Below are positions 5,575 to 58,103 of a stretch of DNA of 64,000 bases, in pieces. How positions within the stretch are numbered: position 1 is the stretch's first letter; each line of letters opens with the position of its first letter. The stretch is from an uncultured Candidatus Saccharibacteria bacterium (GTDB taxonomy: Bacteria > Patescibacteriota > Doudnabacteria > UBA920): the NCBI GenBank assembly GCA_964512925.1, contig CAZEKH010000001.1, positions 39,445 through 103,444 of the forward strand, written 5' to 3'. The position numbers and the translations under genes are program-made. The notes below the pieces were generated by a model that worked only from the letters and a program-made list of their open reading frames with translations, did not search any database and was not told where the DNA came from.

Positions 5575-6765
5575 TTATTTTTTCAGCTTGCTTCCCTTAC
5601 TTCCTCCCAAATTTTTCAGCACGCTGGATTCAAAGGTGTAGTTTATGCTTCTTTTGAGTTTATATTCTTCTTCCGCAAAAGCTATAAGCTTTTTTAAAAG
5701 CTCTGGCAGCTCAAGGCCCGAAGCTTTCCATAAGTGATGGTAAAGCGTTCCCGGAAGCGGGTTTATTTCGTTGGCAAAAAACTCTTTAGTTACTTTGTTG
5801 TACAAAAAGTCCACGCGCGCTATACCGCTGCATTCAACCGCTTTGTAAACCTCTTTTGCTGCTTCTTGGATTTTTTTTGTTATATCTTCCGGAAGACGCG
5901 CGGGTATGACCAGGCTATTTTGGGCTTTACCGGTTTGCCCTCCCCCGTCAGTAATGTATTTGTCTTCAAAATCAAACAGGTCTTTGGAAAATACCGACTC
6001 TTGCAAAAGCGAAGCAGTCAGCGTTTCGTTACCTATCACGCAGCAAGTTACGTCCATAAGGTTTTCCACCACCTCCTCTACAATAACTTTGTTGTCATAA
6101 AAAAAGGCCACTTCGAGTTTCTGCTCTAGCTCTTTCTCATCCTTGGCTTTTCCAATGCCGATGGACGAGCCAAGATGGACCGGCTTAACCATCGCAGGAA
6201 AATTTACTGATTTACTGATTCTCTGATTTACTGATTCTCTATTCTTCTCCCAATCTGATTTACTGAAAAACACATACTTCGTCGTAGGGATACCGGCTTT
6301 TTCAACCATGATCTTTGTCAGAGCTTTGTCCATAGAAATAGCGGACGCAGGAACGCCGCAACCAACATACGGAATTCCAAACATTTCAAAAAGCCCTTGC
6401 AAAGTGCCGTCTTCCCCATATGTACCGTGCATAGCCGGAAAAGCCAGATCTATAACAGTTTCTTTACCAAATAACCCTTTTTTCTTAAACACCATCTTCC
6501 CCACTGACTCCTGCATATCTAAGTAGTATTCGCAGAATTCATTTTGGGCTCTCTCCCCAAGTTTGGGGAGAGCTGGAGAGAGGTTGTTAGTTAAAAATTT
6601 CAAATCCCCCAACTCCTCGCCCAACATCCATTGGCCTTGCTTGGTTATGTAAACCGGTACAACTTTATGATTTAAAGCTTTCAGCCCGTTGATCACCAAA
6701 TTTCCGGTAATGATGGAAATATCATGCTCCACCGAGCCTGAGCCAAAAAATACTCCGATTGTCAT
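5575..6765 (-). CDS. ddl: D-alanine--D-alanine ligase
   Basis: MTIGVFFGSGSVEHDISIITG N-terminus, ATP-grasp layout, VKPVHLGSSIGIGKA motif. Contains an internal GC-rich palindrome and a period-8 tandem repeat. Confidence 0.9.
   Translation of the reverse strand: MTIGVFFGSGSVEHDISIITGNLVINGLKALNHKVVPVYITKQGQWMLGEELGDLKFLTNNLSPALPKLGERAQNEFCEYYLDMQESVGKMVFKKKGLFGKETVIDLAFPAMHGTYGEDGTLQGLFEMFGIPYVGCGVPASAISMDKALTKIMVEKAGIPTTKYVFFSKSDWEKNRESVNQRISKSVNFPAMVKPVHLGSSIGIGKAKDEKELEQKLEVAFFYDNKVIVEEVVENLMDVTCCVIGNETLTASLLQESVFSKDLFDFEDKYITDGGGQTGKAQNSLVIPARLPEDITKKIQEAAKEVYKAVECSGIARVDFLYNKVTKEFFANEINPLPGTLYHHLWKASGLELPELLKKLIAFAEEEYKLKRSINYTFESSVLKNLGGSKGSKLKK
6203..6262. repeat. Period-8 tandem repeat (TTTACTGA / TTCTCTGA units) inside ddl
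   Basis: tttactgatttactgattctctgatttactgattctct...gatttactga. Encodes SVNQRISKSVN. Confidence 0.6.
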
Positions 6766-6794: not shown

Positions 6795-7952
6795 TTACAA
6801 AACCACACGTTTTAAATATTGCGGAATCCTGATTGGAACACCATACCTGTTTGTCTCACAAATTTTAACAATATTTTCAATTGAGTTTAAATCTTCGTTT
6901 TTTGAACTGATTATCTGCACAGGATCTTCCAGCTCTACTTTTTTCAACATACTAACATCCACTGAACACATATTCATACTCACCTTGCCCACAATCGGAC
7001 AAAAGATTCCGCCGATCTTAAAAAAACCTTTGTTTGAAAGCCTGACATCAAGACCCTCGTTATAACCAACGGGTACAGTTGCCACTGTTGTTTTTTGTAA
7101 CACCTCGTAAGTATTATTGTAACCTATTTTTTCTCCAGGCAAAACTGTTTTAACAGAGGTAATAATTGAATACATTTCCAAAGCTGGTTTTAACTTAAGC
7201 TGGCTGAACTGAGATGTGTTAAAACCATACAGCCCAATCCCCAACCGTCCTACATTTGCATTTATATCGGGAAGAAAAAAAGCGCCAGCAGTATTTGAAG
7301 TATGAAAATATTTTACCTTGCTAAATTTATTTTTTATTTCGGAAACAACTCTGCCCCATTTCTGTATTTGTAATTTTGTGAAGACATCACTCTCCCCGTC
7401 CGCATCGGCAAAGTGACTGCACAAACCTTCTAAGATAAAATTTTTATTACTTTGAATTATTTGAGCCGCTTCAGCAATTTGATTTTCCAAAATTCCCTGC
7501 CTGTGCATCCCAGTATCTACTTTCAAATGAAAATAAATTTTTCTTTTTAAATTTGCATTTAAATTTTGTATTTGTTTCAAATCAATTAAAGCGTAACTAA
7601 CATTTTCCAAATTCGAATTAATTTGCTCCACAGTTGCGTAACCCAAAACCAAAATTTTGGTTTTTGTTCCTTCTCGCCTTAACACCAAGGCTTCGTAAAA
7701 ACTGTCTACGACAAAAAATGGACAACCTTCATCGTCTAAAATTTTTCCTACTTCTTTCAAGCCGTGGCCATAGGCGTTACTTTTTAAAACCGGAGCAAAA
7801 GAAACCTTTGGGTAAGCACTTCTAAAAATTTCCAGGTTGTGCAAAATCGCATCTTTAAAAATCCGTACTTCTATGAGCGGCTGGTAATCATTTCTGAACA
7901 ACTTTGATATTTGATTCGCCGACTGACGAATAAATTTTGATATATAGAGCAT
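6795..7952 (-). CDS. alr: Alanine racemase
   Basis: PLP-binding motif VLKSNAYGHG near the N-terminus. 385 aa. Located between murF and ddl. Confidence 0.9.
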   Translation of the reverse strand: MLYISKFIRQSANQISKLFRNDYQPLIEVRIFKDAILHNLEIFRSAYPKVSFAPVLKSNAYGHGLKEVGKILDDEGCPFFVVDSFYEALVLRREGTKTKILVLGYATVEQINSNLENVSYALIDLKQIQNLNANLKRKIYFHLKVDTGMHRQGILENQIAEAAQIIQSNKNFILEGLCSHFADADGESDVFTKLQIQKWGRVVSEIKNKFSKVKYFHTSNTAGAFFLPDINANVGRLGIGLYGFNTSQFSQLKLKPALEMYSIITSVKTVLPGEKIGYNNTYEVLQKTTVATVPVGYNEGLDVRLSNKGFFKIGGIFCPIVGKVSMNMCSVDVSMLKKVELEDPVQIISSKNEDLNSIENIVKICETNRYGVPIRIPQYLKRVVL

Positions 7953-8062: not shown

Positions 8063-9544
<1,482 letters not shown>

Positions 9545-9610: not shown

Positions 9611-9958
9611 TCACAAATTTTTCTTTATCTCTTGAATCACACCTTCTAGATTAATTATTACATACTGGCTCTTTAACCTTAAAACTTTTATGCCGACTGA
9701 ATGCAAAAACTCATCCTTTTCTCTATCTTTCTTAAATTTGTCCGAACTATTGTGACTTGCCCCATCGAGCTCTACAGCCAACTTTATCTCAGGACAATAA
9801 AAATCCAAAATATAATCCCCAACACTGTGTTGTCTCCTAAATTTTCTTCCCAAATTTTTACTTTTTAAACAATTCCACAAACGGGCTTCGGCTGGTGTTA
9901 GGGATTTTCTTAATTTTTTTCTAATGTCTTTTAATTCCGGCTTATTATTTAAAAGCAT
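9611..9958 (-). CDS. DUF559 endonuclease-domain protein (Vsr-like fold)
   Basis: 115 aa. LTPAEARLWNCLK...FRRQHSVGDYILDFYCPEIKLAVELDG is typical of DUF559. Confidence 0.75.
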   Translation of the reverse strand: MLLNNKPELKDIRKKLRKSLTPAEARLWNCLKSKNLGRKFRRQHSVGDYILDFYCPEIKLAVELDGASHNSSDKFKKDREKDEFLHSVGIKVLRLKSQYVIINLEGVIQEIKKNL

Positions 9959-9994: not shown

Positions 9995-10795
9995 TTACAA
10001 AGGAGAGGATAAAAATTCCTTTAAAGTCTTTACAAACTCCTCTGGTTGGTCTAAGAAACTAAAATGCCCTGAGTTCTGAAGAATTTTGAATTTTGAATTT
10101 TGAATTAAGGAATGCATTTTTTCACCAAACTCAACCGGGGTGTCTTTGTCGTTCTCACCCCAAACCAACAGTGTAGGAATTTTTATTTGTTTTAAGTCCT
10201 CGGTTAAATCTTCCTGTGTTACATTTATAAAAGTTTCCCGAAGTTCCGGCGTTGCCAAATAGTCTTCTGCTCCAATCGTCTTATAAATACTCTTCCGTAA
10301 ACCCTGCATAAATTTTGGTTTAAAAACAGGTCTTGCTATTTTTGCAACAAAACCATAAACACTTTTTTTTGATCCACTCACAGCAAATCCCGCTGCATCT
10401 ACCAAAACCAGTTTTGTCAGCCTTCCGCGTAATTCCGCGTTACCTTCTGCATAAGTCCGCGTTGTTTTAATAGCCACTCTCCCCCCAAAACTATGCCCCA
10501 CCAACACAACATTTTTAAGTTCTAACTTTTCTAAAAAACCTTTTACTAATTCTGCATAATCCCCCACTGTCCAAGAAGTCTTTGGCGCAGGCGAACCACC
10601 AAATCCAGGAAGGTCAACAGTGTAACAACTGATTTGCTGATTGACTGATGCACTGATTAACACACTAGCTATCCGAGCCCACACTTCTTTATTGCTCCTC
10701 CAGCCATGCAAAAACACAACAGACACTTCACTATCCCCTGTTCCAAATTGTTTATATGATAATAAATTTTTTTCCACCACAATTTGCTGATTCAT
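9995..10795 (-). CDS. Alpha/beta hydrolase
   Basis: VVLVGHSFGGRVA nucleophile elbow, FLHGW oxyanion region. 266 aa. Contains in-frame period-8 and period-7 DNA repeats. Confidence 0.7.
   Translation of the reverse strand: MNQQIVVEKNLLSYKQFGTGDSEVSVVFLHGWRSNKEVWARIASVLISASVNQQISCYTVDLPGFGGSPAPKTSWTVGDYAELVKGFLEKLELKNVVLVGHSFGGRVAIKTTRTYAEGNAELRGRLTKLVLVDAAGFAVSGSKKSVYGFVAKIARPVFKPKFMQGLRKSIYKTIGAEDYLATPELRETFINVTQEDLTEDLKQIKIPTLLVWGENDKDTPVEFGEKMHSLIQNSKFKILQNSGHFSFLDQPEEFVKTLKEFLSSPL
10629..10658. repeat. Period-8 CTGATT-based repeat inside the alpha/beta hydrolase gene
   Basis: ctgatttgctgattgactgatgcactgatt. Encodes SASVNQQIS. Confidence 0.5.
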
Positions 10796-12062: not shown

Positions 12063-13415
12063 ATGATTTACAACACATTTATTAAAAAAGTTAAATATCA
12101 GCACATCTTTTTGCAAGCTGGAATTTTTTTATTGATTCTCAGCATATTTTTTTCTGTAAGAAAAGTGTTTGAATTACCAGAATCATACATATTTGGTCAA
12201 TTTTCTGATTTTACGACTATTTCCTTATATTTAAGCGATATTATTGGTATATCTTTAATATGTTTACTTTTTTATCTTAAATATAAGAAAAAAATTGAAT
12301 ATCGGATGTCCGATATTTATATATTATTAATTTTCTGGCTTATTTCAAAGCTTTTATTATTTCCTTTAAAAGCAAGCTACATATCAATCTTTTTCACTAT
12401 AAAGCTAATATTTCTGCTATTTGTTGCATATGGAACAGATATTATCTTTACCCATTTAAGAACAATAAAAGTTAAGATATCCCCTATATTTATAAGGATT
12501 TTTTTAATTCTTACCTCATTCCAAGCATTTTTAGCGATTCTCCAGCACATTCAGCAAAAATCCCTTGGCTTGTACCAATTAGGGGAGTCACATATTGGAC
12601 CAAATATTTTAGGGACGGCAAAAGTAGTTTCAAATGACATATTGACAATTCGGAGTTACGGGACATTTCCACATCCCAATGTTTTGTCAGTTTTTCTCGT
12701 TTTTGGCTTAGGAATTTCTATCTATTTGTTACTTGAAGCCAATTCGCTAAGGTTAAAGATTTTATACTCTTTACTTATCATACTAAACACAATCGGTTTA
12801 ACCTTATCTTTCTCCAGAGCAGGATATTTGGCTTATTTACTATTTATTTCGTTCTTTACAATTGTACTTGTTTATAAAAAATATAAAGTTTCCAAATTTT
12901 TCCTTCTGGTTTTGCCCATAATCCTATTTTCAGTAATTCTTTCATATTCAATTTTTAAAAATGAAATCACTCCTCGCTCTGTTACTAAAGATCCGGCCTT
13001 CAGCGAAAGAGTCTTTTTAAACAAAATCGGCTTAAATATGATTAAAAACAACTGGTTTTTAGGAGTTGGAGCAGGGGAGTCAGTGCTTCATATGGAACAC
13101 TACTCAGATACCCCCCTCAAACTTTGGCAAAAGCAACCAATACATAACTATTTTCTACTTTCTTCATCAGAGCTTGGACTCCCTGGATTGATTCTTTTTC
13201 TTTTTATCTTCGCCAACAGTCTGATTGGATTAATAAAAAAACTATATATTTGTTTTTCATCTTACTACTTACTACTTACTGCTTTGTTACTTGTCATACT
13301 GTTTTTAATGCAATTTGACCATTATTTCTACACTTTAAACCAACCACAGTTACTTTTGTGGATGTTTTTAGGACTAGTTTCATCTGAAACAAAAAAATCC
13401 CCAGTAGGGGATTAG
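12063..13415 (+). CDS. O-antigen ligase family (Wzy_C) polytopic membrane protein
   Basis: 450 aa, about 10 TM segments, LSFSRAGYLAYLLF motif typical of the Wzy_C/WaaL family. Confidence 0.7.
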   Translation: MIYNTFIKKVKYQHIFLQAGIFLLILSIFFSVRKVFELPESYIFGQFSDFTTISLYLSDIIGISLICLLFYLKYKKKIEYRMSDIYILLIFWLISKLLLFPLKASYISIFFTIKLIFLLFVAYGTDIIFTHLRTIKVKISPIFIRIFLILTSFQAFLAILQHIQQKSLGLYQLGESHIGPNILGTAKVVSNDILTIRSYGTFPHPNVLSVFLVFGLGISIYLLLEANSLRLKILYSLLIILNTIGLTLSFSRAGYLAYLLFISFFTIVLVYKKYKVSKFFLLVLPIILFSVILSYSIFKNEITPRSVTKDPAFSERVFLNKIGLNMIKNNWFLGVGAGESVLHMEHYSDTPLKLWQKQPIHNYFLLSSSELGLPGLILFLFIFANSLIGLIKKLYICFSSYYLLLTALLLVILFLMQFDHYFYTLNQPQLLLWMFLGLVSSETKKSPVGD

Positions 13416-16240: not shown

Positions 16241-17755
16241 TTAGGCGCTATGCAACACCTCAATTTTTGCTCCTAAAGTTTTCAAACGACTAACAAGATC
16301 CTCATATCCGCGGTTAATAGAATACACATTACGAAGAACGGAAGTTCCTTTGGCTGCCAGCATACCAATCAAAATAATAGCAGCCGGCCGAAGGGCGGGC
16401 GGACAGATAACTTCAGCCCCTTTAAGCTCACTTACACCTTCTATTTGTACCCGATGAGCGTCCAGCAAAGTCAGATTGGCCCGCAATTTAGAAAGCTCTA
16501 GATAATAAATTGCGCGATTTTCATAAACCCAATCATGGATTAAGGTCCTGCCTTTTGCTAGAGCGGCAAGAGGCACAAAAAATGGCAAATTGTCTATATT
16601 TATCCCGGCATTTGAAGGCAGGGGATGAATTTTTTCTGTAAGAGCTGTTAAATTACCAGTCGCCATGGTTTTGATGTCACACAATTTCGTATAACCATTT
16701 TGGCTGAGATAGTTTTTAATTATTTTATACTTAAAACCCATTTTTTCCATCTTTAACAGCTCCATCCGTAAAAACTCTATGGGACACCTTTCAATTGTTA
16801 TGTTGGAGCTCGTTGCCGCCGCCAAGGACAAAAAAAGCATTGACTCAATAGGATCCTCGCTTACTGCAAATTCTATATTTCTATCTATCTCATCTACACC
16901 CTCAATCTCCAAAGTTGAAGAGCCAATACCGGAAATTTTTACTCCCAATTTTTGCAAAAAGAAGCAGACATCCTGCACCATATAATTAGCCGAGGCCAAG
17001 CGAACAGTGGTTTTTCCAGGACATAACGCAGCCGCCATCACAATATTTTCTGTTACCGTATCACCCATTTCATATAAAGTGATATCAGCGGCTTTCAGAT
17101 TTTTAGCAGATATTTCATAATGATCGTGAATGGTTTTTATTTTTATTCCCAATCTCTCTAAAGCAAACAAGTGCGGAGCAACTGTGCGCTGACCCAGTTT
17201 GCAGCCACCAGCAAATGGTAGAGAAAATTCGGGCAAAAAATGCGCCAAAGGACCCATAAGCATAATCACGGTGCGAGTTTTTATCGCTGCTTGAATATCC
17301 AACTGCTGAATGGCAAATATTTTCGGCGGCTTTATAAGCAAGTCATTATTTTGCCATTTAACGCTGACCCCAATACTGCTTAAAACCTCAATTATTCTAT
17401 ATACTTCTTCAATCTTCGGAACATTTTTTAAGGTTGTCGCTCCCTTGTTTAAAAGCGAAGCGCACATCAAACCCAAAGCGCAATTTTTAGAAGTATTGGT
17501 TCTGACAGCGCCGGAAAGTTCGCGCCCTCCCTCAATCTTAAAATTCAACTGTTCAGAGGCTAACGAAATTATCTTTCTGTTTAACACCCCGGAAATTTTT
17601 GAAAGCATTTCGGTAGAAAAATTCTGCAAACCTTTTTCCATACGCGCAACTGCTGACTGACTAGTTTTTAAACTTTTGGCAAAATCTGCCTGGCTTATAC
17701 CTTGTTTTTGCCTGAGCTTTTGAATAAACTTTCCGATAGTTTTGGCTTCAATCAT
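16241..17755 (-). CDS. murA: UDP-N-acetylglucosamine 1-carboxyvinyltransferase homolog with N-terminal HTH_XRE domain
   Basis: Residues ~1-65, IGKFIQKLRQKQGISQADFAKSLKTSQSAVARMEKG, form an XRE helix-turn-helix. The remainder is an EPT-fold MurA with AGGCKLGQRTVAPH (catalytic Cys loop) and MurA-like N-lobe. Confidence 0.8.
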   Translation of the reverse strand: MIEAKTIGKFIQKLRQKQGISQADFAKSLKTSQSAVARMEKGLQNFSTEMLSKISGVLNRKIISLASEQLNFKIEGGRELSGAVRTNTSKNCALGLMCASLLNKGATTLKNVPKIEEVYRIIEVLSSIGVSVKWQNNDLLIKPPKIFAIQQLDIQAAIKTRTVIMLMGPLAHFLPEFSLPFAGGCKLGQRTVAPHLFALERLGIKIKTIHDHYEISAKNLKAADITLYEMGDTVTENIVMAAALCPGKTTVRLASANYMVQDVCFFLQKLGVKISGIGSSTLEIEGVDEIDRNIEFAVSEDPIESMLFLSLAAATSSNITIERCPIEFLRMELLKMEKMGFKYKIIKNYLSQNGYTKLCDIKTMATGNLTALTEKIHPLPSNAGINIDNLPFFVPLAALAKGRTLIHDWVYENRAIYYLELSKLRANLTLLDAHRVQIEGVSELKGAEVICPPALRPAAIILIGMLAAKGTSVLRNVYSINRGYEDLVSRLKTLGAKIEVLHSA

Positions 17756-23870: not shown

Positions 23871-24227
23871 ATGAAAAAAGTTATAAAAAAAGACACAAAC
23901 AGGATTGCTAAAGTAAATTCGCTGATAGAACACGCGCTTGGTCCGGTTTTACGCGAGTTTTTGGAAAACCACAAAGGCCTGGTTACCATCAGTAAAGTGG
24001 AAACCTCGCGAGATATGAAATGGACAAAAGTTTGGATTTCTATTTTTGGGGGCGATGACCAAAAAATCCTGGACTACCTGACAAGAAATATTTATGAGCT
24101 CCAAGGCGAACTTAATAAAAATTTTGCCACCAAAGTTATCCCGCGTTTACAATTTTTTCTGGACACTAGTCCCAGATATGCCGAGCATATAGACGAGGTG
24201 CTTAGGGAAATACACAAAGAAGCTTAG
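23871..24227 (+). CDS. rbfA: Ribosome-binding factor A
   Basis: KH-like RbfA pattern RIAKVNSLIEHALGPVLRE...ISKVETSRDMKWTKVWISIFG...IPRLQFFLD. The ORF-track start at 23844 is a TTG, and the in-frame ATG at 23871 is preferred. Confidence 0.85.
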   Translation: MKKVIKKDTNRIAKVNSLIEHALGPVLREFLENHKGLVTISKVETSRDMKWTKVWISIFGGDDQKILDYLTRNIYELQGELNKNFATKVIPRLQFFLDTSPRYAEHIDEVLREIHKEA

Positions 24228-24291
24228 TATTTTGTATAAAGTATTTAGTATAAAGCTTAATACATAATACCAACTACTTAATACTTTAAAG

Positions 24292-25257
24292 ATGAACGAC
24301 ATATTTTTACAAGCTCAAAGACTAATCAACAACTCTCAAAATATCCTCCTAACTATGCATGAACGGATGGATGGGGATGACGGAGGCAGTCTTTTGGCTA
24401 TGGCTATACAGCTGAAAAAACTTGGAAAAAACATCGCCTGCTCCATAAAAAAAGGCGTGCCACCCTCTTTGGCTTTTTTGCCGGAAAGCCGGCTGATTAT
24501 GGACGACATTGAAACTGACAGTTTTGATCTGCTCATAACTTTTGGTTGCTCCAGTTTAAAAAGAACTGGCAGTACCAACATCCAAAATCTAAAAACCACA
24601 AACCCAAAACTAAAGACTCTCAATATTGACCACCATCCTGACAACGAAAACTTTGGCGATGTCAATGTGGTTGACTCGGAGAAATCCTCAGTGGCGGAAC
24701 TGGTTTATGAACTGTTCAAATTCTACAAATGGCCTGTAGATAAAAATATCGCCACCTGCCTGTTAACCGGCATCATCACTGACACGGGGCGGTTTATGCA
24801 CTCAAACACCCAAGGTTCAACTTTAAAAACCGCCGCGGAACTGATGGAAAAAGGCGCGCTCACTAACCAAATCATCAAACATGCCTACAAAAACAAACAA
24901 ACCTCAGGTTTTAAAGCCTGGGCTAAAGCGCTCAAAAACGCTCGCTTTGATAAAAAAAATAAAATGGTAATTTCAGTTATTTCGGAAGAAGACCAAAAAG
25001 AACTGGGTAATCTGCCGGGCGGAGTTTTTGACGGTGTGGTTGAAACTTTAAACACCATACCTGAAGCAAAATTTTCGCTTTTCATCCGGCAAGACGGCGA
25101 AGTGATCAAAGGCAGCCTGAGAAGCGACACATATAAAAATACGGACGTACAAAAAATCGCCAAACTTTTTGGCGGCGGGGGGCACAAACTGGCTTCTGCC
25201 TTTACCATCCCTGGGAAACTTGTGAAAGACAAAACAGGGGAGTGGAAAATAGTTTAA
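24292..25257 (+). CDS. nrnA: DHH-family phosphoesterase (NrnA-like bifunctional oligoribonuclease/pAp phosphatase)
   Basis: MHERMDGDDGGSLLAMA (DHH motif I region), NIDHHPDNENFGDV (DHH), C-terminal DHHA1 GGGGHKLASAF. Confidence 0.8.
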   Translation: MNDIFLQAQRLINNSQNILLTMHERMDGDDGGSLLAMAIQLKKLGKNIACSIKKGVPPSLAFLPESRLIMDDIETDSFDLLITFGCSSLKRTGSTNIQNLKTTNPKLKTLNIDHHPDNENFGDVNVVDSEKSSVAELVYELFKFYKWPVDKNIATCLLTGIITDTGRFMHSNTQGSTLKTAAELMEKGALTNQIIKHAYKNKQTSGFKAWAKALKNARFDKKNKMVISVISEEDQKELGNLPGGVFDGVVETLNTIPEAKFSLFIRQDGEVIKGSLRSDTYKNTDVQKIAKLFGGGGHKLASAFTIPGKLVKDKTGEWKIV

Positions 25258-46001: not shown

Positions 46002-46036
46002 GTCTTCCATAATACATAATACTTAATTCAATATAC

Positions 46037-46525
46037 ATGATAGTTCTCGGTATTGATCCCGGAACAGCCACCACCGGTTATGGCATAATCCAAACTCAAA
46101 AAAACCAGCTTCAGCTGGTGGATTTTGGCATTATTTCCACTGATAAAAAACTGTCAGACTCGGAACGTTTGGAAATTCTTGGCAGCGATGTGGAAGAGTT
46201 GATAAAAAAATACAAACCAAAATGCGTTGGGGTAGAGAAACTATTTTTTACCACCAACCAAAAAACTGTAATGACAGTATCGCAAGCCAGGGGAGTTGTG
46301 TTGTATGTTTGCAAAAAAGCCGGCATTCCGATACTGGAATACACACCGCTTCAGGTAAAAAGTTTTATCTGCGGTTATGGCAAAGCGGACAAAAAACAAG
46401 TGCAGTTTATGGTACAAAAAACCTTTGCCTTAAAAAAACCGCCCAAACCAGATGACGCGGCAGACGCCATAGCCATCGCCCTATGTGCCGGACATTTTTT
46501 TAAACAAATAAACAGGCTTAAATAA
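46037..46525 (+). CDS. ruvC: Crossover junction endodeoxyribonuclease RuvC
   Basis: MIVLGIDPGTATTGYGII. Confidence 0.9.
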   Translation: MIVLGIDPGTATTGYGIIQTQKNQLQLVDFGIISTDKKLSDSERLEILGSDVEELIKKYKPKCVGVEKLFFTTNQKTVMTVSQARGVVLYVCKKAGIPILEYTPLQVKSFICGYGKADKKQVQFMVQKTFALKKPPKPDDAADAIAIALCAGHFFKQINRLK

Positions 46526-48000: not shown

Positions 48001-50967
48001 ATGTGGAATTATAACATCTTTTCAGCATTTATAAAAACAGTTATAATAAGCTATATGCGCGTATATAACTTCAAAGATTCGCCAAAAACAACAGCAAAAA
48101 AAAATAAGCGGTCTTTTTTATCTGCCCAAATCTGCTCTAAAATAGCCTGGCCAAAAAAATTCAAATTTGGCTTTTTTAAATTTAAAAAAAGAAATTTTTT
48201 CTCCTGGGTGCTCCGCCTAACAGCTTTTGGCATAGTAGCTTTAGCTGCATTGTTTTTGTATTATTCCAAAGACTTGCCCAACCCAAACCGCCTAGTAGAC
48301 AGACAGGTGGCTGAAAGCACAAAAATATTTGACCGGAACGGCGAACTTTTATACGAAATTCACGGAGAAGCCAAACGAACCCTGATTAAGCTGGATCAAA
48401 TTCCTACCCTTGCCCAAAAGGCTGTCATCGCCATAGAAGACAAGGATTTTTACAAACATAGCGGCATTTCCTATACCGGAATATTGCGCGCAGTTTATCA
48501 GGATATTTTGCAGCTGAAAAAATCCCAAGGCGGCAGCACTATCACCCAACAATTCGTAAAAAATGCCATTTTAACCAGAACAAAAAGTTTTGACAGAAAG
48601 CTACGGGAAATTATTTTAAGCATTGAATTGGAAACCAGGTTTTCAAAAGACCAAATTTTAGAATTTTATTTAAATGAAATGCCTTACGGCAGGAACGCTT
48701 ACGGTATAGAAGCGGCCAGTAAAACCTACTTTGGCAAAAACGCTAAAGATATAAATTTGGCGCAAAGCGCTTACCTTGCCGCTATCCTGCAGGCGCCAAG
48801 TTTTTACAACCCGCTTGGCCCCAACAGAGACAATCTGGATAATAGAAAAAATACAGTTCTCAGGCTTATGCGAGAACAAGGATACATCACAGATGAAGAA
48901 GAAAAAACGGCTAAAGCTGAAGTTGTAGAATTCACCAAAATAAAAACTGGACTTTTAGCCCCGCATTTTTCCCTGATGGTGCAAAGTTATCTGGCAGGCA
49001 AATACGGCGAAAAAAGCCTGGAAGAAGGGGGTTTAAAAGTTTATACATCTCTGGATTTGGGTTTGCAAAAAATTGCTGAAACAGCGGTCAAAAAAGGCGC
49101 TGACAATAATGTAAAAAAGTATAGCGCTTACAATGCCGCCTTGGTGGCGATAGATCCTAAAACCGGACAGGTGTTGGCAATGGTAGGAAGCAAAGACTAT
49201 TTTGGCGAAAGCGAACCTGAGGGTTGCAAACCAGGTGTGAATTGCAAATTTGAACCCAATGTCAATGTGGCTTTGTCGCAAAGACAGCCGGGTTCCAGCT
49301 TTAAGCCTTATGTGTATGTAACAGCGTTTAAAAAAGAATTTGGCTATGCGCCGGCCAGTATGCTAATGGATGTGGTAACAAATTTTGGCAGCTTCGCAGG
49401 AAAATCTTATATCCCGCATAACTACGACGGCGCGGAGCATGGGCCGGTTTCTATGCGCACGGCATTGGCAGGCAGCTTAAATATTCCGGCGGTAAAAACT
49501 TTGGCTTTGGTCGGGGTTGAAAATGCCGTGCAAACCGCGCGCGACCTTGGCATAACCAGCCCAATGTCTGACTGCGGACTGTCTTTGGTTTTAGGCGGAT
49601 GTGAGGTAAGGCTTCTGGACCATACGGCAGCTTATTCTGCTCTTGCAAATGGCGGAACAAAAAATCCAATGACTTTTATTTTAAAAATTGAGGAGCCGGG
49701 CGGAAAAATTTTAGAAGAATACAAACAAAATGCCCAAGAAATTTTAGACAAACAGGCCGTGTATCAACTAACAAGCATTATGACCGACAACAACGCGCGG
49801 AGTTTTGTCTTTGGCTCAAATTCGCCCTTGACACTCCCAGACAGGCAAGTGGCGGCTAAAACCGGCACCACCAACCTCTGGGGCAACGGCTGGACAATGG
49901 GATTTACACCATCCTTAGCAGCGGGGGTCTGGGTAGGAAACAATTGTGGCAGTGATGAAAAACACCCGGATTGTTTAATGAAAAAAAACGCGGATGGGGT
50001 ATTGGTAGCAGCCCCGATTTGGCGGGATTTTATGTTAAACGCCTTAAAAGGCACTCCGCCTGAAACCTTCCAAAGGCCGGCCGGCATACAAGACATCGCT
50101 GTTGATTCAGTATCTGGAAAACTCCCAACCGGCAGCACTCCGTCTACAAAAACCGAAGTGTTTGCGGACTACAATATCCCTACTGCTTACGACGATGTGC
50201 ATTTAAACGCGCCTTTTGATTCTCAAACCGGCCTGCCTGCCAATGCCGATACTCCCATTGAAAAAATTACCTACAAAACCTTAACGGTTTTTCGCAGTGA
50301 AAAACCCACCAACCCGAACTGGGAAGAGCCGGTAAAAATCTGGGCAGAGAGTCATGGTTTTGGTTATAACCAAAACGGGTTTTCCGACCAAAATGCTCAA
50401 CCACAAAATCCAGATGCTTCGCAGATAAAAATCACTGAACCTGCTTTAAATATACCTATAAAAACAAATAATTTTAAATTTTCTGCTACTGTAACCGGGA
50501 AAAATCCGATTATAAAAGTGGAATTCTACCTAAACGGACTACTACTGAGCACTTTAAACCAAACTCCTTACGAGATAATGGTTGATAAAAATTTAACTGA
50601 CGGCCAGCATACATTGGCAGTAAAAGCGACAGATACCGCCGGTGTTTCCGGCGCCGATTTCAGCCAGATCATCATAGCGCGCAGTCAGGGACTTAAACTT
50701 GTAAATCCCGCCAATAACAGCTTGATAGTCTTTCCTTTAAATCTGAAAGCGGAGTCTTCAGAAGAATATACAGATGTTGAATTTTTCTATCAGAAAACCG
50801 GGTCTGACAAAATATCCATCGGGAAAACTTCTCCCGGCTCAAACGTCGCCGGCAAATACCAATATTTACTTGACTGGCAAATTTCTCCGGGAACAGGAAC
50901 TTTTGAAGTTTTTGCTGAAACAGGTAGCGGAATTTCTAGCAAAAAAACAATTATTGAAATTCCATAA
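48001..50967 (+). CDS. Class A penicillin-binding protein (PBP1A-type) with extended C-terminal Ig-like region
   Basis: GT51 motif AVIAIEDKDFYKHSGIS. Transpeptidase motifs PGSSFKP, SLN, KTGT. About 250 extra C-terminal residues. Start may be the internal Met (MRVYNF). Confidence 0.85.
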   Translation: MWNYNIFSAFIKTVIISYMRVYNFKDSPKTTAKKNKRSFLSAQICSKIAWPKKFKFGFFKFKKRNFFSWVLRLTAFGIVALAALFLYYSKDLPNPNRLVDRQVAESTKIFDRNGELLYEIHGEAKRTLIKLDQIPTLAQKAVIAIEDKDFYKHSGISYTGILRAVYQDILQLKKSQGGSTITQQFVKNAILTRTKSFDRKLREIILSIELETRFSKDQILEFYLNEMPYGRNAYGIEAASKTYFGKNAKDINLAQSAYLAAILQAPSFYNPLGPNRDNLDNRKNTVLRLMREQGYITDEEEKTAKAEVVEFTKIKTGLLAPHFSLMVQSYLAGKYGEKSLEEGGLKVYTSLDLGLQKIAETAVKKGADNNVKKYSAYNAALVAIDPKTGQVLAMVGSKDYFGESEPEGCKPGVNCKFEPNVNVALSQRQPGSSFKPYVYVTAFKKEFGYAPASMLMDVVTNFGSFAGKSYIPHNYDGAEHGPVSMRTALAGSLNIPAVKTLALVGVENAVQTARDLGITSPMSDCGLSLVLGGCEVRLLDHTAAYSALANGGTKNPMTFILKIEEPGGKILEEYKQNAQEILDKQAVYQLTSIMTDNNARSFVFGSNSPLTLPDRQVAAKTGTTNLWGNGWTMGFTPSLAAGVWVGNNCGSDEKHPDCLMKKNADGVLVAAPIWRDFMLNALKGTPPETFQRPAGIQDIAVDSVSGKLPTGSTPSTKTEVFADYNIPTAYDDVHLNAPFDSQTGLPANADTPIEKITYKTLTVFRSEKPTNPNWEEPVKIWAESHGFGYNQNGFSDQNAQPQNPDASQIKITEPALNIPIKTNNFKFSATVTGKNPIIKVEFYLNGLLLSTLNQTPYEIMVDKNLTDGQHTLAVKATDTAGVSGADFSQIIIARSQGLKLVNPANNSLIVFPLNLKAESSEEYTDVEFFYQKTGSDKISIGKTSPGSNVAGKYQYLLDWQISPGTGTFEVFAETGSGISSKKTIIEIP

Positions 50968-53962: not shown

Positions 53963-54097
53963 TTAGATGGCGAGTTTTTTTCTTCCCTTAGCTCTCCGCT
54001 TGGCCAAAACAGCGCGTCCGCTTTTTGTTGACATACGGTTTAAAAACCCGTGCCTAACTTTTCTTCTTTTTTTCTTTGGCTGATATGTCCGTTTCAT
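53963..54097 (-). CDS. rpmH: 50S ribosomal protein L34
   Basis: [44 protein letters not shown] (44 aa). Not in the ORF track because it is under 60 aa. Confidence 0.9.
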
Positions 54098-54099
54098 AT

Positions 54100-54356
54100 T
54101 TTTTTAATATTTTGCTAATTAACAATTATTTATCTGCCTGCTAATTATACTCAAGTTATATCTTTTAGTCAATGTTTAGGTATTTTAAACCCGCATAACA
54201 ATCTTGTCAGCCTGACTTCACAGCCTATCCACAGCATATCAACAAGACCAATAAATTTTCTCATTATTATGCGAAAAAATTTTATTTTACATGTTGATAA
54301 CCCCCAGCTAAAATATTTAAAGTATTTAATGTATAAAAATAAAATCAAAAAGATTT
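54100..54356. promoter_or_regulatory. Candidate oriC / dnaA promoter region (DnaA-box-like CTATCCACA)
   Basis: AT-rich spacer between divergent rpmH and dnaA containing CCTATCCACAGC. A further AT-rich region with TTTTCCACT / TTATCAACA lies between dnaA and dnaN (55701-55873). Confidence 0.4.
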
Positions 54357-55700
54357 ATGACAAACCAGCAACTGTGGCAAGCAATTTTGGGAAGCCTGGA
54401 AATTTCCTTAAGCAAAGCAAATTTTAATACCTGGTTTAAAAATACTTCAATTATTGAAAAATTGAGCGATACGATAGTAATAGGCGTGCCAAGCACCTTT
54501 AACAGGGATTGGATAGCTGCCAAATACCACGCTGAAATGCTGAAAAGCTTAAAAAGCATTGCCCCGGAAATAAAAGAGATAAAATATCAATTAAATTCCC
54601 AAACCGCCAGAATCCAAAACACGCCGCAAAAAACAGCTGATGCGAACTCTTTACAAAAAAGGCCTTTAGAACAGCAGATTTTTTTCAACCTTAACCCCAA
54701 ATACACGTTTGAGACTTTCATTTTGGGGAAAAACAGCGAATTGGCTTATGCCGCCAGCCAAGCTGTGGCAAAAAATCCAGGCGGGCAATACAATCCGCTT
54801 TTCATTTATGGGGGAGTGGGTTTGGGCAAAACCCATTTGATGCACGCGGTTGGTCATAGCCTTTTAAGCTTGAAGCCGAATGCTAAGATTATATATGTAA
54901 CCTCGGAAAAATTTACCAACGACTACATCAATTCCATCGGGCAGAAAAAAATTGAGGATTTTAAAAAAAATTATCGCAGCGCAGACTGTTTAATGGTAGA
55001 CGATATTCAGTTTTTGGCTGGTAAAGAAGGTACCCAGGAAGAATTTTTTCACACCTTTAACGAGCTGAGGGATAACGGCAAACAAATTATCATCACCTCT
55101 GACAGACCTCCAAAAGAAATTCCCGCCATTGAGGAGCGGTTGGTTTCGCGTTTTGAGTGGGGAATGCTGGCTGATATTCAAGCTCCCGACTTGGAGACAA
55201 GGATGGCCATCCTAAGAATGAAAATGCAAAAACGCAACATCTCAATTTCAGAAGATGTCCTTTTTTACATAGCGGAAAACGTTCAAAACAATGTCAGGGA
55301 ACTGGAAGGCGCTTTAAACCGCCTGGCGGTCTATCAACAAATGGAAAACCGAGGGCTGATTTTAGAGCAAGCAAAAAGCATCTTGGCTAGCGTTATTGGG
55401 GCAAAGAAAAAAATCACCTCGCCCAAAAGAATAGCTGAAATTGTCGCTGATTTTTATAACATCACAACCGAAGACCTGATAAAACAATCCAGAAAAAAAG
55501 AATTTGTCAAACCAAGACAAATTGCAATGTATCTGATCCGTAAAGAACTAGATAGTTCATTTCCTTCAATTGGGGCGTTTTTTGGGGGACGGGATCATAC
55601 AACAGTTATGCATGGGGTAGAAAAAATCACCGGTCAAATTAAAGCGAAGGTTGAGTTTAAACAAGAGGTGGATTTAATTGAGGATAAACTGTTTAACTAA
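54357..55700 (+). CDS. dnaA: Chromosomal replication initiator DnaA
   Basis: Walker A GGVGLGKTHLMHAVGH. Box VII. C-terminal DNA-binding helix. Confidence 0.95.
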   Translation: MTNQQLWQAILGSLEISLSKANFNTWFKNTSIIEKLSDTIVIGVPSTFNRDWIAAKYHAEMLKSLKSIAPEIKEIKYQLNSQTARIQNTPQKTADANSLQKRPLEQQIFFNLNPKYTFETFILGKNSELAYAASQAVAKNPGGQYNPLFIYGGVGLGKTHLMHAVGHSLLSLKPNAKIIYVTSEKFTNDYINSIGQKKIEDFKKNYRSADCLMVDDIQFLAGKEGTQEEFFHTFNELRDNGKQIIITSDRPPKEIPAIEERLVSRFEWGMLADIQAPDLETRMAILRMKMQKRNISISEDVLFYIAENVQNNVRELEGALNRLAVYQQMENRGLILEQAKSILASVIGAKKKITSPKRIAEIVADFYNITTEDLIKQSRKKEFVKPRQIAMYLIRKELDSSFPSIGAFFGGRDHTTVMHGVEKITGQIKAKVEFKQEVDLIEDKLFN

Positions 55701-55873
55701 TGTGTGTAACTCTTTTAAATTTCTTGGGCGGTGTTTATTGGAACGGATAAAAAAATCTTTTCCTTTTTTAATCCACCAAAAAAATATTTGTTTTTATTTC
55801 ATCGCCCAATAAAAATCAGGTTAAAAAATCTTTTCCACTTATCAACAATACTTATTATTATTAATTAATATTT

Positions 55874-56974
55874 ATGCATATAATCTGTACACAAGAAAAT
55901 TTAAAACTCGGATTATTAGCAGTAGGAAAAATAACTACACTAAGTAACACACTGCCGGTGCTGGGAACAGTTTTATTAAAAGCCGAAAATGGAATGCTCC
56001 AACTTTCTGCGACAAATCTTGAAATTGCCGTTCAAACCCAAGTGCGGTGTAAGGTGGAAGAGGTCGGAGCTTTTTCCGTTAACTGTAAAACTTTTACGGA
56101 TTTGGTTAATAATTTTCCAAATAAAAATATTTCTTTAAAACTTAAAGATTCGGCTGTTGAGGTAGATAGTGAAAATTATCATACAAAAATAAAAACCTTT
56201 TCCGCTGAGGAATTCCCCTTGATTCCACCGACGGAAAATTTAAAAACAGTAAACGTTAAGGCTCAAGAGTTTAAAAAAGCGGCGGGAAAAGTTGTTTTTT
56301 CCGCGTCAACAAACCAAACCCAGCCAGAAATTTCCGGTATATTGTTTGGTTTTCGCCAAAACCAATTAAAACTTGCTGCCACAGACCGCTATCGTCTGGC
56401 AGAGAAAAAAATCTTTATTTCGGAAGAAGTAACTCAGCCGGGCGAGGTGATTGTGCCGGCAAAAGCGGTTTTAGAGGCGGTTAGGATAGCTTCTGCTTTT
56501 GATGGGGATATGAGTGTTGGTTGGAGTTTGGGTCAGGCGGTTTTTGTCATTGGGGGTACGACAATTTTCAGCCGGCTGGTTGACGGGCAATACCCGCCTT
56601 ACGAGCAGATCATCCCCGCGAGTTTTCAAGCTGAGGCGGTTGTGAAAAAACAAGACTTGGTGGGCGCGCTTAAAGCGGTTGGGGTTTTTAGTCAAAATAA
56701 CAGTAGTATGGTTTTGGATTACAATAACGAGAGCCAAAAATTTAACTTGTCCAGCGAGGCTGGGGATTTGGGTACTGGCAGTGTGGAGTTGGAGGCGGAA
56801 ATTAGCGGCGGGTCTGGCAGTTTGGTGGTTAACTTTCACTACCTTTTGGATGCTTTACAAAATATGGATTCGGACAAAATCAAGTTTCGTTTTAACGACG
56901 ATTCTTCTGCGATTTTAGTGGTTCCTATAGAAGAAAAGGACTACCTATATTTAGTGATGCCTATAAAAACATAG
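55874..56974 (+). CDS. dnaN: DNA polymerase III beta sliding clamp
   Basis: 366 aa, three-domain clamp pattern, position after dnaA. Confidence 0.9.
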   Translation: MHIICTQENLKLGLLAVGKITTLSNTLPVLGTVLLKAENGMLQLSATNLEIAVQTQVRCKVEEVGAFSVNCKTFTDLVNNFPNKNISLKLKDSAVEVDSENYHTKIKTFSAEEFPLIPPTENLKTVNVKAQEFKKAAGKVVFSASTNQTQPEISGILFGFRQNQLKLAATDRYRLAEKKIFISEEVTQPGEVIVPAKAVLEAVRIASAFDGDMSVGWSLGQAVFVIGGTTIFSRLVDGQYPPYEQIIPASFQAEAVVKKQDLVGALKAVGVFSQNNSSMVLDYNNESQKFNLSSEAGDLGTGSVELEAEISGGSGSLVVNFHYLLDALQNMDSDKIKFRFNDDSSAILVVPIEEKDYLYLVMPIKT

Positions 56975-57017
56975 TTTGGAGGTGTGTATTCAATTTACTA
57001 AAAAAGAAAATTTACAT

Positions 57018-58103
57018 ATGAAAGTAAAAAATCTAACCATCAAAAACTTCCGGAATTATCCGGAATTAAATATTGAAATAAGTCACGATATGATTGTTTT
57101 AAGCGGTCCAAATGCCGTGGGAAAAACCAATCTTTTGGAATCGGTTTATTTCGCTTCTTTGTTTAAATCTTTCCGCGATGATAATGAGTTTATTTTTTTA
57201 AAAAATACTGATAGCGCTGAAATAAAAGTTGTGGTGGAAAAAGCTGGGAGCCAAAATGTTTTGGAAATTTATTTGGCAAAAAAAGATAAAATCTTAGCTA
57301 ATTTTTTCATTGACGGGGTGAGAAAAAAACGCAAAGAAGCCCAGGGTTTTTTGCGTGTTGTGATATTTGATCCGACTGATGTGGATATGTTCACAAAGAA
57401 TCCGGAAGCCAGAAGAAAATATTTAAATATGGTTTTGTCGCAAAAAGACCCGGAGTATTTGGATATTTTAAGCGCTTATAAAAAAATTGTTTACCATAAA
57501 ACTAGGTTGTTAAGCGATCTTAAGCATGGAATGTCGTCTGCTTCGGATTTGTCAGATTGGAACGAGCAGTTGGCGGAATGGGGAAAAAAGATAATATTTG
57601 TCAGGAAAAAATTTATTGATTTTTTAAATCGTGATTTGTCGGATATCTACACTTCAATCTCCGGTTTTCATCGGCCTGTGGAAGTTGTTTATGAAACCTT
57701 GAACGGGCAAACTGAAGAGGAAATAAAAGAGTCTTTTTTAGCCAAGTTAAAATTATATGAGAAAAAAGAAAAACTAAGCGGTTCTTGTCTGGTTGGTCCG
57801 CATCGGGATGATTTTTTCTTGAAGAGTGAGGGTTTGTTTTTACCCCCATTTTCTTCCCGCGGCGAGCTAAGAAGCCAGGTTTTGGCGTTAAAAATAATGG
57901 AGCTTGAATATTTAAGCCGGGATGGAGAAAAGCCCATACTTTTGTTGGACGACGTGTTGTCCGAGCTGGACGAAAGCCGCAGGAATTTTTTGCTTAAATA
58001 CCTGCAGGGCAGGTTTCAGACTTTTATAACCACGACCCACCCGCTTGAAATGCCTGCTCAGCACATAACGTTAAGCCCAGCCCCTGAAGAAATAAAAATA
58101 TAA
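57018..58103 (+). CDS. recF: DNA replication/repair protein RecF
   Basis: MKVKNLTIKNFRNY...GPNAVGKTNLLESVYF. ATG at 57018 preferred over the TTG at 56976 that abuts the dnaN stop. Confidence 0.9.
   Translation: MKVKNLTIKNFRNYPELNIEISHDMIVLSGPNAVGKTNLLESVYFASLFKSFRDDNEFIFLKNTDSAEIKVVVEKAGSQNVLEIYLAKKDKILANFFIDGVRKKRKEAQGFLRVVIFDPTDVDMFTKNPEARRKYLNMVLSQKDPEYLDILSAYKKIVYHKTRLLSDLKHGMSSASDLSDWNEQLAEWGKKIIFVRKKFIDFLNRDLSDIYTSISGFHRPVEVVYETLNGQTEEEIKESFLAKLKLYEKKEKLSGSCLVGPHRDDFFLKSEGLFLPPFSSRGELRSQVLALKIMELEYLSRDGEKPILLLDDVLSELDESRRNFLLKYLQGRFQTFITTTHPLEMPAQHITLSPAPEEIKI

Follow-up and report, generated by a model that had tools for sequence, protein, structure and literature searches.

Translated tandem repeats of seven and eight nucleotides in a cell wall gene cluster of Candidatus Doudnabacteria

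Three genes in the 64-kb stretch of DNA analysed here, termed the window, carry the same 8-nt tandem repeat, which is translated in frame in each of them. These host genes belong to one cell wall gene cluster and, as the initial annotation of the sequence had stated, all of them lie on the minus strand.

5575..6765, minus strand: ddl, encoding D-alanine--D-alanine ligase (Ddl; Pfam Dala_Dala_lig_N/C)
8063..9544, minus strand: MurF-type Mur ligase gene (Pfam Mur_ligase_M/C), host of octamer array 2 and of four heptamer arrays
9995..10795, minus strand: alpha/beta hydrolase gene (Pfam), host of octamer array 3

An alanine racemase gene (alr) and a DUF559 gene sit between the three hosts (Pfam), and the order hydrolase-MurF-Alr-Ddl is kept in relatives wherever this stretch was recovered; neighbours of the cluster in relatives include FtsK, RecA and HSP20. 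Orthologs of all three host proteins belong to Candidatus Doudnabacteria or Patescibacteria where their source names them, and the window therefore derives from a bacterium of the Candidate Phyla Radiation (CPR). Those of Ddl, 120 in number, are assigned to Candidatus Doudnabacteria where named, while the Mur ligase orthologs are named by their sources as UDP-MurNAc-tripeptide--D-Ala-D-Ala ligase. In the AlphaFold2 (AF2) model, residues 1-130 of the Mur ligase form long helices in place of the usual N-terminal domain, a feature kept across the clade, and this N-terminal extension of about 130 residues is probably membrane-spanning.

The octamer repeats occur at the following sites, where the isolated unit is listed together with the three arrays.

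6202..6240, minus strand: octamer array 1, reading GAATCAGTAAATCAGA GAATCAGTAAATCAGT AAAT and encoding E177-N188 (ESVNQRISKSVN) of Ddl
6253..6267, minus strand: isolated unit CAGTAAATCAGA, encoding FSKSD, 17 nt ahead of array 1 in the coding direction
8170..8208, minus strand: octamer array 2, TCAGTAAATCAGAAAA x2.3, encoding Q446-Q458 (QSVNQKISKSENQ) of the Mur ligase
10628..10658, minus strand: octamer array 3, AATCAGTG CATCAGTC AATCAGCA AATCAGTT, encoding LISASVNQQIS between the HGW motif and DLPGFG of the hydrolase

On the coding strand the unit is AATCAGNN, which corresponds to (CTGATTNN)n on the plus strand over 6202-6240, 8170-8208 and 10628-10658, and CTGATT hexamers recur on that strand every 8 nt at 6207-6236 (with the extra unit at 6255), 8171-8208 and 10629-10658. 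Tandem Repeats Finder gives for array 1 4.4 copies of period 8 (6202-6236) and 2.1 copies of period 16 with a 100% match (6207-6240), for array 2 4.9 copies of period 8 (8170-8208) and 2.4 copies of period 16 with a 100% match (8171-8208), and for array 3 3.9 copies of period 8 with a 73% match (10628-10658). The arrays hold 3.9-4.9 units at a period-8 identity of 73-90%, with two variable bases (NN) in each unit and with AATCAGTA as the commonest unit. Together with Pfam, these results agree with the initial annotation that the same period-8 repeat lies in frame in ddl, a Mur ligase gene and an alpha/beta hydrolase gene. The second array is at 8170-8208 and not 8161-8200; the 4-7 copies it counted never reach seven, and the constant part is the hexamer CTGATT followed by two variable bases rather than CTGATTT plus one.

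A search with CTGATTNNCTGATT allowing at most one mismatch yields 10 matches, all within the three arrays, where 0.37 are expected, and none of 100 dinucleotide shuffles reaches 10. The arrays all lie within 4.5 kb in one co-oriented gene cluster, and two adjacent octamer units are found nowhere else in the 64-kb window. Chance, or the convergent low-complexity drift that had also been considered initially, would suit an AT-rich genome of about 38-40% GC and peptides rich in N, K, I and S, but the observed arrays exceed everything obtained by dinucleotide shuffling, third-order Markov simulation or codon shuffling within genes, and we give it practically no credence. Outside the arrays CTGATT occurs 18 times in the window against about 20 expected, on which count an oriented word of the DNA-uptake, Chi or KOPS (FtsK orienting polar sequences) type was discarded. 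As RNA the octamer tracts are unstructured, with folds no more stable than those of shuffled sequences (z +1.7, +1.2 and -0.2), and Rfam finds only tRNAs in the window and no match to the arrays. At the isolated unit near array 1 (match at 6255-6265) orthologs use other codons. The N-terminus of Alr (window 7902-7928) encodes RQSANQISK (cagtcggcgaatcaaatatcaaag), a faint trace of AATCA type that may represent a decayed fourth member of the octamer family.

The repeat originated at the level of DNA. Three units comprise 24 nt or eight codons, and AAT CAG NNA ATC AGN NAA TCA GNN is translated to N-Q-x-I-S-x-S-x, so that the shared peptide SVNQ(K/R/Q)ISKS results from reading the 8-nt unit in all three frames. 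The array codons are minor ones (TCA 18%, GTA 22%, CAG 39%, ATC 26%), and random synonymous codons would yield periodic DNA for the octamer peptide with a probability of about 1e-4; therefore the DNA repeat is primary and the peptide its translation. The related peptides recognised initially are present, as ESVNQRISKSVN, QSVNQKISKSENQ and LISASVNQQIS, and are, by the same estimate, by-products of the DNA-level repeat. Moreover, residues that are identical between orthologs also share the identical codon at 23 of 29 positions in the Ddl array versus 466 of 1021 in the rest of the gene (Fisher p=4.5e-4), in a test that comprises four phylogenetically non-independent comparisons.

Selection at the protein level would imply that SVNQxISKS is a shared surface motif of Ddl, MurF and the hydrolase serving a common interaction, for example in the assembly of D-Ala-D-Ala branch enzymes. 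Matching peptides are indeed found on a surface helix or loop of three cluster proteins in the window and in the relative L134, and of two in L138, and the spacing of V and I by four residues gives the octamer peptide an amphipathic pattern. However, such selection leaves the codon identity and the perfect 16-nt periodicity at synonymous sites unexplained, and the Ddl, Mur ligase and hydrolase peptides differ from one another within most of the relatives examined, which makes a shared motif very unlikely.

Stop codons are avoided within the arrays. Thus AATCAGTA in the phase AAT-CAG-NNA would give TAA, and NN starting with T is absent from all seven units in that phase but present in 9 of the 13 units in other phases (hypergeometric p=0.004; window, L132 and L003). 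ATTGAAA arrays, with a 7-nt unit, encode IEN[C/W/F]KLK, their TGA being altered to TGT/TGC, TGG or TTC, and the peptide type IEN[C/W/F]KLKIEN recurs among the Ddl orthologs.

A unit length that is not a multiple of three, in a tract inside open reading frames (ORFs), had suggested a contingency locus, in which gain or loss of a single 8-nt unit by slippage would switch the genes on and off by phase variation. Against this, the hosts belong to core peptidoglycan-precursor enzyme families (Pfam), of which Ddl and MurF are essential, and the tracts of 4-5 units are broken up by the variable NN. In addition, two independent Logan assemblies (L001 and L002, from SRR14271336 and SRR14271332), both of them consensus assemblies, are 100% identical over the arrays, the 90% cluster of each protein has a single member and so provides no near-identical variants, and the arrays stay in frame across orthologs that are 55-75% identical. 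We consider a switch of this kind highly improbable.

Whether the array peptides add length differs between the hosts. In Ddl, alignment over ESVNQRISKSVN (E177-N188) needs no gaps for any of 29 orthologs or for the Staphylococcus aureus enzyme (2I87), in which the corresponding segment is HNILKLVNDKLN. The AlphaFold model places the array at helix 176-186 of the ATP-grasp central domain, with a predicted local distance difference test score (pLDDT) of about 93, followed by strand 191-195, and by this prediction the array peptide is an ordinary structural helix, not a loop, with no added length. The loop location assigned initially to all the peptides fails for Ddl and is borne out for the Mur ligase, where array 2 extends over the last part of helix 438-449 and a loop of 8 residues, 450-457 (AF2). 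This loop ranges from 5 to about 50 residues among orthologs, and that of the window exceeds the shortest by 8 aa (24 nt, three units). The segment of the hydrolase between HGW and DLPGFG spans 14-40 aa in 120 homologs, with 21 aa in many of them and 29 aa in P0312 and P0348, and in L139 it holds about 8 octamer units; judging from the usual alpha/beta-hydrolase topology, array 3 would correspond to the last part of helix A and the turn leading into strand 4.

Length changes by steps of three units also occur, as in the additional 8 aa of the Mur ligase loop, the difference between 21 and 29 aa in the hydrolase segment and a 21-nt insertion in the window hydrolase. The last of these (7 aa, EGNAELR, at about 10427-10447) is missing from seven orthologs and falls within a GC-rich stretch (10421-10463) that holds three ACGCGGA copies. 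An apparent length polymorphism of the hydrolase between L131 (220 aa) and L132 (261 aa) was set aside, as their DNA sequences do not differ and the discrepancy lies in the called start. At 8945-8983 the Mur ligase carries 13 extra residues (LNHSANASGTGQD, pLDDT <50) that are missing from L133 and L134, and the same loop reads SALRASSPLKGEGNM in L003 and SPSPQPSPARGEGG in P0124 and P0195; the latter two peptide types have the appearance of GC-rich hairpin repeats that are translated. In-frame inserts of a second kind are found in the C-terminal loop of the Mur ligase in L135, L136, P0124, P0140, P0156, P0169, P0181 and P0213, with peptides such as VIARSAADKAIS, VIASEAKQSN...SGLAMT and PRSSDALGARNDK (example DNA gtcattgcgaggagtgcggccgacaaagcaatctc), and these inserts resemble a dispersed palindromic repeat that is translated in frame.

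The suggestion that the repeat is a short inserted module accords with the extra peptide in the Mur ligase (8 aa, three units) and with the 21 to 29 aa step in the variable segment of the hydrolase, and it fails for Ddl, where ortholog alignment shows nothing extra. In its fuller form, the array would have arisen once, and ectopic gene conversion or a small mobile element would have carried it into the two remaining genes. Such copying finds support in the agreement of the Ddl array with that of the Mur ligase at 30 of 31 nt, in identical codon phase, in the greater likeness of arrays within the window than of the orthologous arrays of the window and L134, in the heptamer common to the Mur ligase and Ddl of L138, and in the net gain of 8 aa in the Mur ligase loop. 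It is countered by the lack of a net insertion in Ddl; by arrays that grade into their flanks and show no terminal repeats, target duplications or hairpins; and by the presence of only three copies in 64 kb, five in JGI metagenomes and none in IMG/VR. Furthermore, homogenisation within each array toward one unit would yield equal similarity without any transfer, and we regard a pasted module as unlikely.

The metagenome counts derive from the 22-mer AATCAGTAAATCAGARAATCAG, for which only one of the 5 exact matches in JGI metagenomes is relevant, namely L128, the orthologous ddl of the P0025 lineage, and which has 0 matches in IMG/VR; these scans give no sign of a phage-borne or widely dispersed module. 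The generic pattern AATCAGNNAATCAGNNAATCAG, scanned over 185,579 genomes, matches at least 120 loci in many phyla, mostly perfect octamer microsatellites (AATCAGCG, AATCAGCC), and is too generic to be informative on this point, with no Doudnabacteria among the 80 titled loci of these at least 120 matches. Among the matches listed (L006-L125), octamer microsatellites with an AATCAG core are common, as are 7/8-nt repeats neighbouring them, for instance CCCAATAC and AATGGCG; they occur in Chloroflexota, Kiritimatiellota, Bacteroidota and other phyla, and the arrays are often long and perfect (36 units in L063) and adjoin other short-unit arrays.

The DNA examined from relatives amounts to about 150 kb. 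Orthologous loci from eleven relatives were compared by codon alignment, and in most of them the array sites are likewise occupied by tandem arrays, often of different units. The Ddl helix is encoded by AATCAGNN in the window, L003, L139 and L140, and by a decayed copy of it in L134, while AATTAGAG is found in L135, ATTGAAA x4.4 in L136, decayed GTGACAA in L137, AAGAATC x3.9 in L138 and CTCGTCA x4.3 in L133; in L132 the codon alignment reveals no array at this helix. The Mur ligase loop has AATCAGNN in the window and L132 and, in decayed form, in L133 and L134; L003 and L139 have heptamers there, and L135 and L136 hairpin-type inserts. Copies of AATCAGNN also make up the hydrolase segment of the window, of L139 and, as about 6 decayed units, of L134, while this segment has GTGACAA-like units in L133 and L136, ATCAAGTT x3.9 in L138 and a GC-rich hairpin in L132. 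The vocabulary is reused: AATCAGNN serves three sites in the window and others in L003, L132, L134, L139 and L140, and GTATTAA, ACTACTT, GTGACAA and AAGAATC each recur across loci or relatives. Among the 120 Ddl orthologs the peptide types of the helix are translations of these arrays, and they are scattered on a neighbour-joining tree of the rest of the protein, which carries no support values.

Arrays change in a concerted manner at unchanged length. In the window, L132, L133 and L134 the Mur ligase loop is equally long, and the window reads TCAGTAAATCAGAAAA x2 where the 59%-identical ortholog of L132 reads TCAGCAAATCAGAGAA x2. The four differences between them form two identical pairs 16 nt apart, two of the differences being synonymous, and such a pattern would arise from four independent substitutions with a probability of about 4e-4 to 3e-3; therefore the tract was probably copied between neighbouring units after the split, without a change of length. 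At the Ddl helix, arrays of different units fit with at most one codon of length difference, and the perfect 16-mer x2.1 lies within the segment that is gapless relative to S. aureus Ddl. Similarly, the hydrolase strand encoded by (AATTCAA)x3.7 is equally long in all eight orthologs, each of which is quasi-periodic there.

The same comparison bears on the possibility that the tracts are a functional nucleic acid element, in which spaced AAUCAG motifs in mRNA, or CTGATT/AATCAG in DNA, are bound by a protein or RNA whose target is the hydrolase-murF-alr-ddl transcript or locus, under selection superimposed on coding; a putative binder would recognise (AAUCAGNN)n RNA or (CTGATTNN)n DNA. A constant hexamer with variable NN over five lineages, array codons that are conserved above the gene average despite being minor, and the grouping of three arrays within 4.5 kb of one co-oriented cluster would all fit such an element. 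Yet unrelated units (ATTGAAA, GTGACAA, CTCGTCA and the hairpin insert) occupy the same sites in other relatives, the AATCAG arrays are decayed in L133 and L134, and the tracts show neither structure nor an Rfam match. A spacing of 8 nt is also out of step with helical phasing, and this explanation, too, appears improbable.

The octamer is one of a clade-wide set of 7- and 8-nt arrays concentrated in the gene cluster, a point missed in the initial annotation. The other arrays of the window that belong to this set are heptameric.

9053..9084, minus strand: heptamer quasi-array GTGCTCA/GTACTCA, encoding VLSTKYSVLS just past the P-loop of the Mur ligase
9144..9174, minus strand: perfect heptamer array (CTTCAAT)x4.4, encoding KSSIFNLQSS in the Mur ligase
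9237..9268, minus strand: perfect heptamer array (CTTTATA)x4.6, encoding LYTLYFILYT in a predicted membrane helix of the Mur ligase
9288..9317, minus strand: heptamer array (GTATTAA)x4.3, encoding SVLSIKYLVLS in the Mur ligase
10081..10106, minus strand: perfect heptamer array (AATTCAA)x3.7, over the conserved C-terminal IxNSKFxIL strand of the hydrolase
13261..13284, plus strand: heptamer array (CTTACTA)x3.4, encoding SYYLLLTA in a Wzy_C (O-antigen-ligase-like) gene

At the 9053-9084 site orthologs carry (GTATTAA)n with TAA altered to AAA or AAG, and CTTACTA recurs in the Mur ligase of L003 and L135, where it encodes TTYYLLLTT. The CTTCAAT, CTTTATA and GTATTAA arrays of the window fall in the N-terminal membrane region of the Mur ligase, whose orthologs keep the peptides YFILYT and SVLSIKY, and parts of the MurF membrane extension were possibly built from such heptamer arrays.

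Strict period-7 arrays number 4 against 0.05 expected, and strict period-8 arrays 1 against 0.025. In a census of 200.7 kb of Doudnabacteria DNA (the window and eight loci; at least 3 copies and at least 80% identity) there are about 35 period-7 and 5 period-8 arrays, a handful of period 5-6 and none of period 9-11, and nearly all of the period-7/8 arrays lie inside long ORFs. The 62.6 kb from Wzy to Ddl hold 36 of the period-7/8 arrays, compared with 4 in 138 kb of flanks (binomial p=1.3e-14), which corresponds to densities of 0.57/kb and 0.029/kb, an approximately 20-fold difference; the window alone has 7 arrays in the 7.8 kb of the cluster versus 1 in 56 kb (p=3e-6). Per-gene codon shuffles likewise place the strongest lag-7/8 signals in Ddl, the Mur ligase, the hydrolase and Wzy.

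A weaker lag-7 signal, the strongest outside the cluster, is found in a DHH-family gene (24292-25257; p<0.005, codon shuffle), where a decayed CCAAAAT-like heptamer array at window 24575-24609 lies in frame and encodes TNIQNLKTTNPKLKT. Intergenic heptamers of the GTATTAA family occur at window 24226-24286 and 46008-46042: upstream of the DHH gene (24292) there are two short inverted runs, AAGTATT... followed by ...AATACTT, and a TATTATG/TATTAAG run lies between 46001 and 46037.

The core-gene junctions of the cluster (window 9611-9958; L133-L139) hold small inserted genes that differ by genome: DUF559 (Vsr-like endonuclease) in the window, a methyltransferase in L133, PF05635 (23S rRNA intervening sequence protein) in L135, a GIY-YIG gene in L139, and ORFs without known identity in L134, L136 and L139. 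With different inserts in each genome, the cluster looks recombinationally active from its gene content. A diversity-generating retroelement was rejected because it would not yield 7/8-nt tandem units; neither a reverse transcriptase nor a template/variable repeat pair was seen, the PF05635 gene of L135 being the only lead.

Proximity to the replication origin was considered as a cause of the hot spot and no link was found, dnaA-dnaN-recF lying at 54.4-58.1 kb, 41-49 kb away. The three genes extend over window 54357-58103, with the minimum of the cumulative GC skew near 54-56 kb, and a repeat-rich stretch at 54058-54395, upstream of and overlapping the dnaA start, is probably oriC. Over this distance of 41-49 kb from the octamer arrays, the host genes are co-oriented with the leftward fork. 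A MurA-type enolpyruvyl transferase (EPSP_synthase) encoded at window 16241-17755 has an N-terminal HTH_3 fusion that is kept in relatives (L131, L135 and L137).

The explanation we favour, with somewhat better than even confidence, is that the tracts are translated microsatellites that misaligned templated copying has shaped and among which selection has retained those with an open frame and helix-compatible peptides. The octamer would then be one family among many 7/8-nt arrays occupying tolerant helices and loops of the Wzy/hydrolase/MurF/Alr/Ddl cluster. Misaligned templated copying between adjacent units would both create the arrays and keep their units homogeneous, by slipping, copying and realigning at the replication fork or by short-patch conversion between misaligned sisters. 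A seed unit could in this manner crystallise over tolerant sequence, mostly overwriting its neighbours at unchanged length, with the occasional gain or loss of three units (21 or 24 nt) as the only in-frame step. Selection would purge frameshifts and stops, such that a unit reading TAA, TAG or TGA carries a variant, and only units translating to helix- or loop-compatible amphipathic peptides would persist; both the octamer, with V and I four residues apart, and ATTGAAA, with its heptad-like I..C/W.L, would suit an amphipathic helix. Loops of 7-8 nt, whether in these arrays or in the long simple-sequence repeats of other prokaryotes, exceed the range of about 4 nt of MutS-type mismatch repair, and the dominance of 7/8-nt units may be due to escape from it.

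Several observations weigh against this explanation. The copying mechanism is inferred from patterns in the sequences, among which no intermediate or polymorphic state was seen, and a purely mutational model does not explain the concentration of arrays in one cluster; other envelope genes of the window, encoding MurA (16241-17755), a class A penicillin-binding protein (48001-50967) and a MurG-like protein (340-1434), give no lag-7/8 signal. The AATCAG hexamer is constant across lineages, with only NN drifting and minor codons being kept, which could equally reflect selection on a nucleic acid motif. Moreover, one unit recurs across genes of a single genome (three sites each in the window and L134, and AAGAATC in the Mur ligase and Ddl of L138), and to account for this recurrence one needs either inter-locus exchange or a restricted repertoire of permissible units. 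Recombination between lineages could also have scattered the peptide types over the Ddl tree.

A more far-reaching proposal, and a doubtful one, is that Doudnabacteria possess a locus-targeted process of repeat overwriting, a templated copying activity or recombination regime focused on the cluster that repeatedly swaps surface helices and loops of D-Ala-D-Ala branch enzymes for new peptides encoded by 7/8-nt repeats, the alternative being that the arrays are a passive by-product of slippage. Such a process may also have built the N-terminal membrane helices of MurF and, if it exists, would amount to a diversification system for cytoplasmic cell wall enzymes, perhaps as part of an arms race against inhibitors, of which phage lysis proteins are one example.

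Returning to translated microsatellites, non-triplet repeats in essential genes are expected either to be excluded or to act as on/off switches, and the arrays of Ddl and MurF do neither. If the phenomenon extends genome-wide, it would represent a distinct route to protein novelty, in which the peptide is dictated by the dynamics of a DNA repeat, and an unusual mutational or recombinational regime in Patescibacteria. It also calls for caution in alignment, phylogeny and selection tests with these genes, and the 20-fold concentration in one cell wall gene cluster presents a testable puzzle.

Among the papers searched, none describes repeats of this type in Doudnabacteria, Patescibacteria or the CPR at large, and comparison was made with systems described elsewhere. 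Rickettsia palindromic elements are palindromes of 100-150 bp that lie in frame within genes and always add length. They resemble the octamer tracts in placing repeated DNA in frame at tolerant surface positions of unrelated conserved genes, but the latter are 30-40 nt long, non-palindromic and tandem, and add no length in Ddl. Contingency loci, such as the tetra- to heptanucleotide simple-sequence repeats (SSRs) of Haemophilus influenzae (PMC2651432), also have non-triplet units within reading frames; they are, however, long, uninterrupted and polymorphic and lie in dispensable surface or restriction genes, whereas the octamer tracts are short and interrupted, lie in core enzymes and show no polymorphism in the assemblies. 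Closer in some respects are the amino acid tandem repeats of Borgs (PMC9879509), which are likewise translated DNA tandem repeats, young and of independent origins, at similar places in homologs and with flanking partial repeats. The in-ORF units of Borgs are all divisible by three (PMC9879509), in contrast to the 7/8-nt units of Doudnabacteria with their three frames, stop repair and frequent location in ordered helices.

The nearest described category is that of the long SSRs of prokaryotes, including the cyanobacterial short tandemly repeated repetitive (STRR) sequences and GGGNATC repeats. Prokaryotic long SSRs have units of 5-11 nt with an excess of heptamers (Mrazek et al. 2007, as outlined in PMC4692102), and they are mostly intergenic, under-represented in coding regions and little studied (PMC4692102). 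The Doudnabacteria arrays share with them head-to-tail units of 7-8 nt in excess of chance, about four units per array and slippage as the usual explanation. They differ in being nearly all translated within ORFs, several of these in essential housekeeping enzymes, and in recurring at orthologous sites throughout the clade and changing at constant length. The STRR heptanucleotides of Calothrix and Nostoc (cited in PMC4692102) and the GGGNATC repeats of Xanthomonas and Nostoc similarly draw on a limited 7-nt vocabulary reused across loci and related genomes in arrays of about four units. These repeats are intergenic and G-rich with a proposed G-quadruplex, while the arrays of Doudnabacteria are AT-rich, coding and unstructured, and include units of 8 nt.

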